DNA of 64,000 bases from Fimbriimonadia bacterium (GTDB lineage: Bacteria > Armatimonadota > Fimbriimonadia > Fimbriimonadales > JABRVX01), in NCBI GenBank assembly GCA_041483895.1, contig JBGPGO010000005.1, positions 96,001 through 160,000 of the forward strand, written 5' to 3'. Below, one piece after another: positions 2,318 through 54,371 of the stretch (its first letter is position 1; the number at the start of each line of letters is the position of its first letter). The notes under the pieces are model-generated. The model saw nothing but the letters and a program-made list of their open reading frames with translations, was not told where the DNA came from and did not search any database. The position numbers and the translations under genes are program-made.

Positions 2318-2387
2318 CTCTAACCCTCCCCCGCTCGCGGGGGAGGGTTAGAGCCTGCGCTGAGCTTGTCGAAGGGGTGGGGGTTCT
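2318..2387. repeat. GC-rich palindromic element (CCCTCCCCCGC-nn-GCGGGGGAGGG...GGTGGGGG); may also act as terminator
   Basis: 17-bp perfect arms 2318-2334/2337-2353; same core as the element inside ffh at 25990-26027. Confidence 0.8.
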
Positions 2388-2393
2388 GAGGAC

Positions 2394-24034: not shown

Positions 24035-24118
24035 ATGTGATTCCGAGCTTGCGAGGAATCTGTGTGGCCAGGGAAACCCTCGGGCGATGGCAGATTCCTC
24101 GCAAGCTCGGAATCACAT
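24035..24118. repeat. Miniature inverted-repeat (REP/MITE-like) element
   Basis: 28-bp perfect arms ATGTGATTCCGAGCTTGCGAGGAATCTG (24035-24062)/(24091-24118); partial CGGAATGACA follows. Confidence 0.8.
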
Positions 24119-24905: not shown

Positions 24906-26387
24906 TTAGCGAAACTTCTTTCCCGTGCGCTTCATGCGCTTCTGCATTCCCATCATGCCCTTCATCATCTGCCGCATCTGCTGCAGCTGCGATATCAGGG
25001 CGTTCACATCTTCCGGCTTCGAGCCGCTCCCCGCCGCGATCCGCCTCTTGCGCGAGCCGTTCAGCAGCTCCGGATGGCGGCGCTCCTGCGGCGTCATGCT
25101 CAGGATCAATGCCTCCACGCGCTGCATTTGTTTCCCTTGCATCGCCTCATGGGCGCCCTTCATTTGGCTCATGCCGGGGATCATATCCATGATCTTTTCG
25201 AGCGAGCCCATCTTCTTGATCATCTGGAACTGGCTCAGCATGTCCTCGAAGTTTAGCGTGTTTGACCGCAATTTTGCTTCGAGCTGCTTCGCCTGGTCCA
25301 AATCGAAGGCCGCTTCGGCGGTCTCGATGAGGGAAAGAACGTCCCCCATGCCGAGAATTCGCCCGGCGGCCCGGTCGGGATAAAACGGCTCCAGGGCGTC
25401 GGTTTTCTCGCCGACGCCGACGAATCGGATAGGTTTACCACAAACGGCGCGAATACTGAGCGCCGCGCCGCCCCTCGCGTCCCCATCCATCTTGGTTAAT
25501 ATGACCCCGTCGATGCCCAGCTGTTGATTGAAAGCCTCGGCGACGTTGACCGATTCCTGCCCGGCGGTGCCGTCAACCACTAGAAGGGTTTCATGGGCTC
25601 CGACCGCCTGCTTGATGTTTTTGACTTGGCGCATCAGGTCGTCGTCAATCTGCAGCCGGCCGGCGGTGTCCACGATCAGGACGTCCGTCGCCTCCTTTTT
25701 GGCTTGGACGGCCACCTTCACCGGGTCCGTCTCGCCCTCGACGGCTACAACCGGCACCCCGATCTGCTCGCCCAACACCTGCAACTGCCTTACCGCCGCC
25801 GGCCGTTGCAGGTCACAGGCCGCCAGGATCGGCTTCTTGCCCTGGCCTTGCAGCCACTTGGCCAGCTTGGCAGCGGTGGTGGTCTTACCCGATCCCTGTA
25901 GGCCGCACAACAGAAACACCGTCGGCCCGCTCGCGGCCCAGTTGATCTCATTCGATGCGACCGGTCTCCCGACCGAGTCGCCAGGTCGACTCCCTCCCCC
26001 GCTTGCGGGGGAGGGCTGGGGTGGGGGTCCGGAAAAGCCCTCCCCTTTTTTCACGCCCTCGCGTGAAGAAGGGGGAGGGTTGGGTGGGGGTTCTTCCGAT
26101 GCGACCGGCCTCCCGACCGGCGCGCCACCAAGCAGCTCCACCATGTGGTCCCGGACAATCTTGACCACCTGCTGGTCGGGCTCCAGCGCTTCCCACACCT
26201 TCTCCCCGACGGCCCTCTCGGTGACGGCGCGGACGAACTCCTTGACCACCTTGTAGTTGACATCGGCCTCGAGGAGGGCGACGCGCACCTCGCGCAACGC
26301 TTCGGTGACGTCCTTCTCGCTGAGCCTTCCGCGCCCGCGCAGACGCCCAAATATCCCACCGAGCTTCTGGCTTAGGGTTTCGAACAT
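24906..26387 (-). CDS. ffh: Signal recognition particle protein Ffh with in-frame repeat-derived insertion
   Basis: ALLEADV, GLQGSGKTT, DTAGR, TKMDGDARGG, GRILGMGD, SMTPQER. Confidence 0.98.
   Translation of the reverse strand: MFETLSQKLGGIFGRLRGRGRLSEKDVTEALREVRVALLEADVNYKVVKEFVRAVTERAVGEKVWEALEPDQQVVKIVRDHMVELLGGAPVGRPVASEEPPPNPPPSSREGVKKGEGFSGPPPQPSPASGGGSRPGDSVGRPVASNEINWAASGPTVFLLCGLQGSGKTTTAAKLAKWLQGQGKKPILAACDLQRPAAVRQLQVLGEQIGVPVVAVEGETDPVKVAVQAKKEATDVLIVDTAGRLQIDDDLMRQVKNIKQAVGAHETLLVVDGTAGQESVNVAEAFNQQLGIDGVILTKMDGDARGGAALSIRAVCGKPIRFVGVGEKTDALEPFYPDRAAGRILGMGDVLSLIETAEAAFDLDQAKQLEAKLRSNTLNFEDMLSQFQMIKKMGSLEKIMDMIPGMSQMKGAHEAMQGKQMQRVEALILSMTPQERRHPELLNGSRKRRIAAGSGSKPEDVNALISQLQQMRQMMKGMMGMQKRMKRTGKKFR
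25953..26119. repeat. Composite palindromic element in frame within ffh
   Basis: 23-bp direct repeats (25953-25975, 26097-26119; 1 mismatch; offset 144 nt) enclosing hairpins at 25990-26027 and 26035-26096. Confidence 0.9.
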
Positions 26388-26506: not shown

Positions 26507-27562
26507 ATGGATCTAGAAAGTGTTCATATACAGAGATTCCGGTGCTTCGACGACTTCAAGATTACAGGTTTCCGCCAGATTACGTTAGTTGCCGGAGCTA
26601 ACAACGTCGGCAAGACCGCGCTCTTAGAAGCCATATTCCTGTTGTACGGCCCAGCTAGCCCGGACCTACCCGGCATGCTCAACTTGAATCGCCAACTTTC
26701 AGGCCACGTCATTGTTCCATTGGAGTTTTGGGGGTGGCTTTTTCACGAGCGAAACATAAAGGAAACCGCCACGATCCAGTCTAGCGGTGACGCCTCAACT
26801 GAGCGTAGCCTGACGCTCACGTTGAAACACGGTGACACATTGTCTATGAGCGACAAGGATCTTATCGCACAGCCGCCCGGTCCAATACTGAATCCGTACA
26901 TTCTCGAAATGGCATACCAGATTGGATCCGGGGAACGGTTTATTTCCCGTGCGAGACCCGGCGACCAGGGCATCCAGTACGATGTCGCTAGTATTCCGTC
27001 AATACCAACGATACTTACAATGTCCAGCACACTTAGATACCCTTTGGATGTGCCGCAACTCTTTACGGACGCTGTCCGAGACGGTCAGAAAGATAAGCTG
27101 ATTGCCGCGATGAGGACCATCGCACCAGATTGCAATGATCTTCTATTGCTCCAGTGGTGTGGAGCGTCTGTTCTGCACGTCGGTCGTTCTTCTGGCGTGC
27201 CTATGCCGATCCAGCTAATGGGGGATGGCGTTGCAAGATTGTTCTCAATCCTTCTTGTGGTATATCGGGCAAAAGATGGGATCGTGTTGATCGACGAAAT
27301 CGAGGCAGGCTTTCATCACTCAAATTTTTGCATGGTCTGGGAATCAGTTATCGACACTGCTACGAAAAACAACGTTCAGGTAGTGGCAACCACTCACAGT
27401 TTAGAATTCATCGAATCTGGATACAGCGTATTTCGAAAAGGCGAACGATCGGATTTGCTCAGATTGATAAGGTTGCAATCTGTTGATGGCAAGACCAAAG
27501 CATTCGATTACGATCTGGATTTGCTTGAAGCGGCCCGTGAAATCGAGGCCGAGGTCCGTTAG
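26507..27562 (+). CDS. ABC/AAA ATPase (AAA_15/AAA_21-like)
   Basis: IQRFRCF, GANNVGKT Walker A, MGDG signature, LIDEIEAGFH, ATTHS. Confidence 0.9.
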   Translation: MDLESVHIQRFRCFDDFKITGFRQITLVAGANNVGKTALLEAIFLLYGPASPDLPGMLNLNRQLSGHVIVPLEFWGWLFHERNIKETATIQSSGDASTERSLTLTLKHGDTLSMSDKDLIAQPPGPILNPYILEMAYQIGSGERFISRARPGDQGIQYDVASIPSIPTILTMSSTLRYPLDVPQLFTDAVRDGQKDKLIAAMRTIAPDCNDLLLLQWCGASVLHVGRSSGVPMPIQLMGDGVARLFSILLVVYRAKDGIVLIDEIEAGFHHSNFCMVWESVIDTATKNNVQVVATTHSLEFIESGYSVFRKGERSDLLRLIRLQSVDGKTKAFDYDLDLLEAAREIEAEVR

Positions 27563-52300: not shown

Positions 52301-52870
52301 ATGGGAGAGACCGAATCACCGCGCCGGCGGTCCAAATGCTGCGTTTGGGTTTTCCTTACGCCGTTCATATTGATCGGCGTCGGCCTGATCTTCCTATACT
52401 TTTACGCCGGCTTCCCGCCGAAGCAGGTCTGGCTGTACCTGTTCAACCCGAAGCGGGATCTGCATGTCGGGAGCTGCCTCGACAACTTGCGCGAAATGCA
52501 AAAGGCTCTTTCCGCATACGTTGTGAGTAATGACCGGTATCCTCCTGCGGATCGGTGGATGGACGAAGTGATCCAGTACAACTCCCCGGATGACGTGACC
52601 CGCAAAGAGAACTGGAAGCGATTCCGGTGCCCCACCTCCACCGGCGAGGACGAATACGGCTATGCGATGAACGCCGAGCTTTCCGGCGCGTTGCGGCCGC
52701 TGGAAAAGGACAAAGCGGAGTGGGCTCGCGCGGAGAAGACCCCCTTCATCTTCGATTCTTCGGACACATCCCGCAATGCTCACGGGTCCCTGTCGCTGTT
52801 GCCGAAGCCAGGCCGGCACGACGGTAAGAATAACATGCTGTATGCCGATGGACACGCAGCGTCTGAGTAG
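52301..52870 (+). CDS. H-X9-DG domain (pilin-like) membrane protein
   Basis: TM, SCLDNLREM, YGYAMN, HDGKNNMLYADGH. Confidence 0.75.
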   Translation: MGETESPRRRSKCCVWVFLTPFILIGVGLIFLYFYAGFPPKQVWLYLFNPKRDLHVGSCLDNLREMQKALSAYVVSNDRYPPADRWMDEVIQYNSPDDVTRKENWKRFRCPTSTGEDEYGYAMNAELSGALRPLEKDKAEWARAEKTPFIFDSSDTSRNAHGSLSLLPKPGRHDGKNNMLYADGHAASE

Positions 52871-54371
52871 CGATCTGGCTGCGATTGTCGGCGACGAGGG
52901 TGTGATCTCTCGCGCTGACCAGCTTGTAATGTACGATTGCGACGCGTATACAATCGAGAAGGCGCTTCCCACCGTCGTCGTGCTGCCCACCTCTACCGAC
53001 CACGTATCCGCCATCTGTCGTCTGGCACATCGTGCTGGGCTGCCGGTGATTCCACGGGGCGCCGGGACCGGGCTTTCCGGCGGCGCGTTGGCGGTCGAAG
53101 GCGGGATTATCATCTCTTTGACCCGCATGAACCGCATTTTGGAGATTGATATCCCGAACCGTTTCGTCCGCGCCCAGACGGGGGTGGTCAACGCCAGCAT
53201 TACGAAGGCGGTGAGATCCACAAGCCCTCCCCTTTTTTCCAGCGACTCCGGCAACAACCCGACGATGTCCAAACTCTCTGAGCCGGAAAAAGGGGGAGGG
53301 TTGGGTGGGGGTTCTTCGGATTTCTTCTTCGCCCCGGACCCCTCTTCGCAAGGCGCATGTACCATCGGCGGCAACATTGCCGAAAACTCCGGAGGGCCGC
53401 ACACGCTGCGCTACGGTGTGACAGCCAACCACGTCACGGGACTGACATTGGTTCTCCCCGATGGTACGGTGGAGGAACTGGGCGGGCCGGAGAGGGAGCC
53501 GTTCGGCTACGACCTGGTCGGCATCGTGGTCGGCAGCGAGGGCACGTTTGGGATCGTGACCGAGGCGACCTGCCGAATCTTGCGAAAGCCGGAGGCGGTG
53601 GTTACACTGCTGGCCTCTTTCCCTTCCGTGGAATCGGCGACGCAGGCCGTGACCGCTGTGATTGCCGAGGGATTGCAACCCGCCGCGCTAGAGATGATGG
53701 ACCGTCCCGTGCTGGAGGCCGTCGAGATGGCATTTGGGTACGGTCTGGCGCGCGGAGCGGAGGCGGCGCTCATCGTCGAGTTCGAAGGCTGCGCGCCATT
53801 TGTCCAAGAGGCCTCTCAGCAGGGCGATGCCATCTGTCGAGCGGAGGGGGCCTTCGCGGTCCTGTCCGCGACGGAGGACCTGGAACGGGCGAAGTTGTGG
53901 GCGGCGCGGAAGAAGGCGATCGGGGCGTTGGGTCACATCACGCCGAGCGTGGTGACCCACGACGGCGTAATCCCCCGGTCCAAACTGCCTTCGGTCCTGG
54001 CGCAGTGCGCCGATATCGCGCGTCGGCATGGGCTGCGAAATGCCAACGTTTTTCATGCGGGCGATGGGAATCTGCATCCGGTGCTGATGTTCGACGACAC
54101 CGATCCCGAACAGGTGCGAGCAGTGGTGGCGGCGGGGGAGGAGATTCTGAATACCTGCCTCGCCGCGGGGGGAAGCCTGACGGGCGAACACGGCATCGGT
54201 ATCGAGAAAGCAACGATGTTGGACCGGATGTTCGATGCGGACACGATTGACTGCATGCGCCGCCTGAAGACTGTATTCAATCCGGACGGGCGCTGCAATC
54301 CGGGCAAGATATTCCCCGATTCAAAGCATTGCTATGAAATGAAGCCTCGGCGGGGTCCGATCGGGGTTTGA
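52842..54371 (+). CDS. glcD: FAD-linked oxidase, GlcD-like, with in-frame repeat insertion
   Basis: PRGAGTGLSGG, APDPSS, GSEGTFGIVT, HAGDGNLHP, GEHGIG, NPGK. Confidence 0.85.
   Translation: MPMDTQRLSSDLAAIVGDEGVISRADQLVMYDCDAYTIEKALPTVVVLPTSTDHVSAICRLAHRAGLPVIPRGAGTGLSGGALAVEGGIIISLTRMNRILEIDIPNRFVRAQTGVVNASITKAVRSTSPPLFSSDSGNNPTMSKLSEPEKGGGLGGGSSDFFFAPDPSSQGACTIGGNIAENSGGPHTLRYGVTANHVTGLTLVLPDGTVEELGGPEREPFGYDLVGIVVGSEGTFGIVTEATCRILRKPEAVVTLLASFPSVESATQAVTAVIAEGLQPAALEMMDRPVLEAVEMAFGYGLARGAEAALIVEFEGCAPFVQEASQQGDAICRAEGAFAVLSATEDLERAKLWAARKKAIGALGHITPSVVTHDGVIPRSKLPSVLAQCADIARRHGLRNANVFHAGDGNLHPVLMFDDTDPEQVRAVVAAGEEILNTCLAAGGSLTGEHGIGIEKATMLDRMFDADTIDCMRRLKTVFNPDGRCNPGKIFPDSKHCYEMKPRRGPIGV
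53222..53317. repeat. Palindromic element in frame within glcD
   Basis: 96 nt; first 18 nt and last 28 nt identical to 26035-26052 and 26069-26096 in ffh. Confidence 0.9.

Follow-up and report, generated by a model that had tools for sequence, protein, structure and literature searches.

A long-loop BoxC/TM-type repeat read in frame within a GlcD-like oxidase gene of a Fimbriimonadia bacterium

Introduction

BoxC repeats have been known since the 1990s, but without a mechanism. BoxC, PIT and TM_ECO elements are class II intrastrand triplex repeats (Holder et al. 2015, PMC4666352). TM_ECO occurs in many copies, each consisting of a C-rich stem, a loop, a G-rich stem, a short linker and a second G-rich tract that is the third strand in the triplex model, and its loops are less conserved than its stems. 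The accessible text of that paper places the E. coli copies always between genes, does not connect the motif with a mobile element, and mentions neither DUF559 nor an endonuclease.

Other repeats already offer examples of palindromes translated as parts of proteins and of conserved arms that flank a variable spacer. Rickettsia palindromic elements (RPEs; PMC10969869) and intragenic GTAG/CGTC REPs (PMC3733652) are described in frame in unrelated genes, to whose products they add tens of residues. A literature search on intragenic GTAG/CGTC repeats, confined to main texts, gave nothing relevant, and supplements may bear on intragenic TM copies. REPINs combine conserved inverted arms, which carry compensatory changes, with a highly variable spacer, in which length is more important than sequence; this variability is noted but left unexplained in the accessible text of the reports (PMC3116915, PMC8049555, bioRxiv 10.1101/2021.07.10.451892).

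Here we analyze a repeat inside a glcD-like gene in a 64,000-nt stretch of Fimbriimonadia bacterium DNA (the window; positions 96,001 to 160,000 of contig JBGPGO010000005.1, assembly GCA_041483895.1). The glcD element has the order of parts, the high copy number and the poorly conserved loops described for TM_ECO. It differs from the published description in its 60-nt first loop between 8–9-nt stems and its 2-nt linker, against a first loop of 3–6 nt and a second of 3 nt in TM_ECO, and about 28 genes of this genome hold in-frame copies, whereas the E. coli copies are intergenic. It shares with RPEs and intragenic REPs the property of being a palindromic repeat in frame in unrelated proteins. 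However, RPEs are described as about 150 bp long with a conserved peptide, while this element is 96 nt long, the family is read in several frames, and each copy encodes a different central part of the peptide; by description, it is a sequence family other than RPE. A REPIN is described as a REP doublet with a RAYT as partner, whereas the glcD element is a single asymmetric hairpin with a tail, lies within a gene, and has DUF559 as its likely partner. The new elements of this work are 21 long-loop BoxC copies and an apparent exchange of loops with a RAYT-linked repeat family; neither the long-loop subfamily nor the exchange was found in the literature searched.

Results

The insertion in the glcD-like gene

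The host gene (52848..54371, + strand) encodes an intact GlcD-like FAD-linked oxidase whose Pfam FAD_binding_4 match is interrupted at the insertion site. The element is a net insertion of 96 nt (53222..53317, +), or 32 codons in frame, located between a helix ending in AV and the conserved APDP motif, just before FFFAPDPSS, as a preliminary description of the sequence had placed it. Exactly 32 residues are absent at this site from 37 of 37 aligned homologues (38 loci were fetched, L022 lacked the region and was left out, and row L023 comes from the unpublished genome G036). None of the 37 carries the loop, which supports the independent insertion proposed earlier, and no empty glcD allele was found. 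The insertion postdates the split from the relatives searched.

The left stem arm consists of a C-rich tract and a T-tract (53222..53238, +), and the right stem arm of an A-tract and a G-rich tract (53287..53300, +). They enclose a unique 48-nt interior made up of a short closing stem and a 41-nt loop (53239..53286, +). A 2-nt linker, the second G-rich tract and a pyrimidine-rich end of uncertain ownership follow (53301..53317, +). In the computed hairpin and its tail, the C-rich stem, the G-rich stem and the second G-rich tract follow each other in class II order, the last with G for A at one position. The length of the insertion is exact, but its ends are uncertain by about 6 nt: removal by hand of 53222–53317 leaves AVRSTDFFF, removal of 53216–53311 leaves AVSSSDFFF, and both are plausible. 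Copies of the family have a purine-rich flank on the head side and a flank starting with CTT on the other, and the boundary is not sharp. Collecting the copies had been proposed as a way to fix the ends and the target site; no sharp end could be defined, the element ends being fuzzy and asymmetric, and no target-site duplication was seen by reading at glcD. Five of the six reading frames across the 96 nt are open and one has a TGA, in agreement with the earlier statement that the element is open in both orientations. The interior is not host glcD sequence that two arms came to flank, because the net gain is the whole element. Rfam at gathering thresholds gave no match in the window.

The host protein is the only strong match of its kind in the genome, and it keeps the invariant columns of a 36-row alignment. 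Its TIGR00387 score of 429.7 is under the curated cut-off of 567.9, as are the scores of three of three uninterrupted homologues (408–498). The name GlcD thus holds in the sense of a GlcD-like FAD-linked oxidase; by TIGR00387, the protein is not a GlcD equivalog. Folding from the single sequence gave a pLDDT of 37, and the model based on the 36-row alignment (mean pLDDT 83.5) was used instead. Residues 128–153 of this model fall below 50 and lack secondary structure, and the rest adopts a D-lactate dehydrogenase fold (TM 0.90). The inserted 32 residues are predicted to be a disordered loop at a place where the protein can loop them out, consistent with the surface loop that had been expected. 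The encoded peptide is most likely neutral. Two CCG-domain (GlcF-like) proteins, L082 (G000:C6:1-489) and L069, also contain in-frame BoxC copies, and one of them may be the partner of the GlcD-like protein.

The BoxC/TM-type family

The head motif of the element has 129 matches in the genome compared to 1 in a Markov simulation of equal length, and a broader motif definition gives 134 BoxC clusters. The glcD element is a BoxC/TM-type repeat, a member of a known family with about 130 copies in this genome. The strict TM_ECO consensus, taken from the accessible text of PMC4666352, has no match in the genome, and 41 short copies fit it with one A/G change. The absence of strict matches and the 60-nt and 2-nt loops at glcD, outside the strict loop limits, identify a BoxC-type variant rather than TM_ECO proper. 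The exact T-tract pattern was absent from 400 other genomes of the phylum, and scans of metagenomes gave no match and then one unrelated short-loop match.

Most of the 134 clusters lie outside the scored open reading frames. Thirty long open reading frames spanning motif matches were submitted to Pfam, and 26 are recognizable genes with a BoxC-type copy; the four dropped were L094 (LtrA), L079 and L081 (no family), all three either false matches or not genes, and L055 (no Pfam family). Together with ffh and glcD, about 28 genes hold a copy in an open frame, of which ffh and glcD were compared against orthologues. The hosts include QueG, PabB/C, TrmD, HemN-like, KdtA, MutY, DNA polymerase III alpha, ABC ATPases, glycosyltransferases and others, where the labels QueG, TrmD, KdtA and MutY are our interpretation of Pfam matches. 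The host genes are unrelated, both strands and several frames are used, and in more than half of the 26 genes Pfam domain matches lie on both sides of the copy or across it. These small repeats thus reach core proteins (Ffh, TrmD, QueG, KdtA and the DNA polymerase III alpha subunit) to which they add sequence.

The preliminary description equated the glcD element with one in ffh. Their arms are identical, the right 28 nt according to the computed comparison and the left 18 nt when read directly, but the ffh insertion is a composite of 55 codons (25950..26114, −) in which two BoxC-type units lie between copies of a third repeat family. The unit common to both genes is a short-loop T-tract BoxC unit of 62 nt (26035..26096, +), a length that is not a multiple of 3. 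The two copies were said to have opposite orientations, which is correct relative to the genes; ffh and glcD are on opposite strands, and on the chromosome both copies point in the same direction. The ffh insertion is absent from 10 of 10 homologues compared (11 were fetched, one without a match to the anchor motif). The immediate upstream neighbor of ffh is an AAA ATPase with an AbiEii-type Pfam match (26507-27562), encoded on the opposite strand. A third BoxC-type hairpin in the window, with a displaced G-rich tail, is intergenic between dnaK and dnaJ (2318..2392, +).

Other repeats were encountered alongside the BoxC-type copies. Perfect inverted repeats of 28 nt and 25 nt (24035-24118 and 2394-2482 of the window) belong to two of at least seven further palindromic families in the genome, which have 18–153 motif matches each. 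Y1 transposase genes are flanked by several of these families, and proteins contain translated copies of several. The C-terminal part of the DNA polymerase III alpha open reading frame (L077; G000:C8:64613-69256) reads through at least four repeat families in frame. At the ends of contigs C24, C26, C27 and C32 of the same genome (G000), two kinds of insertion-sequence-like ends that start with TG, presumably IS3-like, lie in the short BoxC loop, which suggests loop-specific targeting.

Long loops and the family-2 spacer

Long interiors of 27–48 nt occur in 21 BoxC copies, grouped in length classes, and all are different except for one tandem pair. The eight loops of exactly 28 nt have 41% pairwise identity compared to 95% for their arms. 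Shuffled 28-nt loops have 27 ± 1.5% identity, and 0 of 5000 shuffles reach 41%. Loop divergence is about 10 times the arm divergence. These data support the earlier view of fixed arms around a variable interior. Long, variable BoxC loops extend to further families of the phylum (G098, G132, G215, G300 and G261). Long loops of nearly the same sequence recur at scattered sites within G098, and such loops are also shared between G098 and G132, which are two genera.

The consensus of the 28-nt loops led to a second repeat family, referred to here as family 2. Its 143 elements are 58–60 nt long, have inverted arms of 11 nt and contain 139 different interiors; the interiors have a mean identity of 42% and differ by substitutions with almost no indels. 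The family-2 pattern was absent from 170 other genomes of the class and from viral contigs. A RAYT (L146:904-1434; G000:C6:123203-123733) scoring above the NF047646 cut-off has family-2 copies on both sides, and six further Y1 transposase matches are present in the genome. The variable spacer, the arms and the flanking RAYT fit the published description of REPINs. Some family-2 copies are read in frame in proteins.

Many long BoxC loops appear to be related to the family-2 spacer. Of the 11 BoxC interiors of 34–37 nt, nine match the profile of the family-2 spacer in same-strand comparison, at p<0.05 by both an ungapped and a gapped test. The gapped test also detects three of six interiors in the 42–44-nt class, and neither the two 27-nt nor the two 48-nt interiors have a match. 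Closeness is 0.395 between BoxC loops and family-2 spacers, 0.384 among BoxC loops, and 0.278 for shuffled sequences. The BoxC loops, being as close to family-2 spacers as to each other, form no clade of their own. Moreover, 20 of the 134 BoxC clusters have a family-2 copy within 200 nt, compared to 1.9 at random, and nested BoxC/family-2 copies are present. From these data we infer loop exchange by recombination between BoxC and family 2.

The glcD interior had been called unrelated to that of ffh, and a search for the origin of 53241-53284 had been proposed. No source was found in its own genome (best E 0.11) or in phages and plasmids (best E 0.3), and its similarity to the family-2 spacer profile is not significant (p=0.06 and 0.31). 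In the family as a whole, the interiors are not arbitrary sequence: they form length classes, and the commonest long class matches the family-2 spacer. The only two 48-nt interiors have nine bases in common at one end (window 53239-53247 and G000:C1:309076-309084). Relative to the arms, these nine bases lie on opposite strands, which may reflect an inverted loop or chance.

DUF559 genes and BoxC-type hairpins

DUF559 (PF04480) is described as a Vsr-like PD-(D/E)XK nuclease (PMC3424549). Of 151 genomes of the class, 101 contain it, and it has no match in the present genome, which is 95% complete. Under a strict pattern, BoxC-like hairpins were detected at 13 of the 30 best-scoring DUF559 loci compared to 1 of 29 glcD loci. 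A relaxed pattern, with one locus added, gave 20 of 31 and 2 of 29; the DUF559 loci come from related genomes and are not independent, so that p-values for these comparisons overstate the association. The remaining 11 of the 31 DUF559 loci are without a hairpin even under the relaxed pattern. The DUF559 gene of G002, a genome of the same family, sits among several BoxC copies; in G215, from another family of the phylum, long-loop copies with differing loops adjoin two DUF559 genes; and E. coli ycjD, a DUF559 gene, is 167 nt from a TM copy. The same arm-and-tail repeat as in glcD brackets DUF559 genes in the relatives, whereas at glcD no nuclease gene lies between the arms. A literature search on the DUF559–BoxC pairing, and on DUF559 with palindromes or mobile repeats, gave nothing relevant. 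Gene proximity in these genomes suggests that the likely mobilizer is a DUF559 nuclease acting in trans.

Discussion

The glcD copy is genuine: it is an ordinary in-frame insertion of a long-loop BoxC-type repeat, and probably a neutral one. The explanation of the whole pattern that we favor, and hold to be reasonably probable, is a mobile BoxC repeat with DUF559 acting in trans, a passenger loop and tolerated in-frame copies. A non-autonomous BoxC/TM-type repeat, non-coding by origin, would have spread to about 130 sites in this lineage. The Vsr-like DUF559 nuclease would recognize the arms and the tail and drive copying, and as a result only the arms and tail would be under selection. The loop would be a passenger that keeps its length within a subfamily, drifts in sequence, and may be swapped by recombination with neighboring repeats. 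Within genes, the survivors would be the in-frame, stop-free copies at tolerant surface sites.

Three other explanations bear on the glcD copy itself or on what moved it. The long-loop copies could be chimeras that took both spacer and mobility from family 2 and are moved by RAYT, an HUH tyrosine transposase, and not by DUF559. This is unlikely, even though a RAYT flanked by family-2 copies and six more Y1 matches are in the genome while DUF559 was not found there, and the long loops match the family-2 spacer. The long-loop copies are without family-2 arms, those of G215 flank DUF559 genes, and a BoxC copy is within 1.5 kb of only one of the six Y1 loci; the seventh, RAYT, is flanked by family 2 and not by BoxC. 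We give clearly less weight to the copy being kept for a benefit to the host, either through tuning of glcD expression by an mRNA hairpin or triplex or as a new protein surface. Di Nocera 2013 (PMC3733652) is a source of speculation on such effects, the arms are intact inside genes, and arm changes in family 2 are often mirrored (25 in both arms versus 21 one-sided), which points to repair or selection for pairing. However, the host genes are unrelated and use both strands and several frames, the peptide is predicted to be disordered, and TM elements have no promoter, terminator or in vivo triplex effect in the accessible text of PMC4666352. An assembly artefact that joined a repeat into the gene is hardly credible. 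Contigs of sequencing runs X1 and X2 match the left junction and the entire interior without a single difference, and no joint in them omits the 96 nt. Moreover, the insertion preserves the reading frame exactly, its interior is unique, and 27 other genes have a like pattern. At the right junction the coverage reaches only 17 letters on one side, short of 31 letters on each side; this junction is therefore not formally bridged, and X1 or X2, the best runs, may be the source sample of the assembly.

The remaining alternative concerns the loop, which could be actively diversified on copying by error-prone synthesis or single-strand damage, so that a constant scaffold delivers a new 10–15 residue peptide with each insertion. 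We regard this as improbable, a little more so than transfer by RAYT. The 139 distinct interiors among 143 family-2 copies, their 42% identity with almost no indels, and the roughly 10-fold excess of loop over arm divergence are in its favor. In a toy turnover model with equal mutation rates, nearest-neighbor loop identity in family 2 approaches 1.0 compared to 0.69 observed, and this value is reached only with a loop error of 20–30% per copying. The same model then loses the consensus, with a mean identity of 0.26 compared to 0.41 observed. Family-2 tandem arrays differ at 18 of 170 interior sites, 12 of 161 sites in the co-duplicated flanks (p=0.34) and 4 of 132 arm sites (p=0.12 for arms versus flanks, not significant), and the loops once in place show no excess mutation. 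Fifteen of 95 dispersed family-2 copies have a neighbor at ≥80% identity, and together with the near-identical BoxC loops at dispersed sites and across two genera, they show copying without scrambling. The glcD loop is identical in X1 and X2. The overshoot of the equal-rate model means that drift alone needs an old burst and lasting arm conservation; this combination fits both figures, but it requires selection or repair to act on every copy. Slow drift with conserved arms, as in the explanation that we favor, accounts for most of the loop pattern.

The more general proposition that BoxC-type and REPIN-type repeats rewrite a single-stranded loop on copying and exchange loops between unrelated systems is, in our estimate, equally doubtful. 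If true, it would amount to a natural insertion library in which a constant, frame-open scaffold places a fresh 10–15 residue peptide in the surface loops of housekeeping proteins, and to a form of diversification that uses neither reverse transcriptase nor CRISPR spacer capture. The genome is a test bed for these questions, with about 130 BoxC copies (21 long-loop), 143 family-2 copies with 139 spacers, and signs of exchange, and family 2 is a clean case for the study of REPIN-type spacer variability. A CRISPR-like reading is ruled out by the inverted arms. A diversity-generating retroelement is ruled out as well, because all four bases vary and there is no adenine bias; the single reverse transcriptase match in the genome has no repeat beside it by eye, and both points also count against active diversification. 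This match (L145; G000:C7:201978-205532) lies in a low-GC stretch with an open reading frame upstream, a locus that we take to be retron-like.
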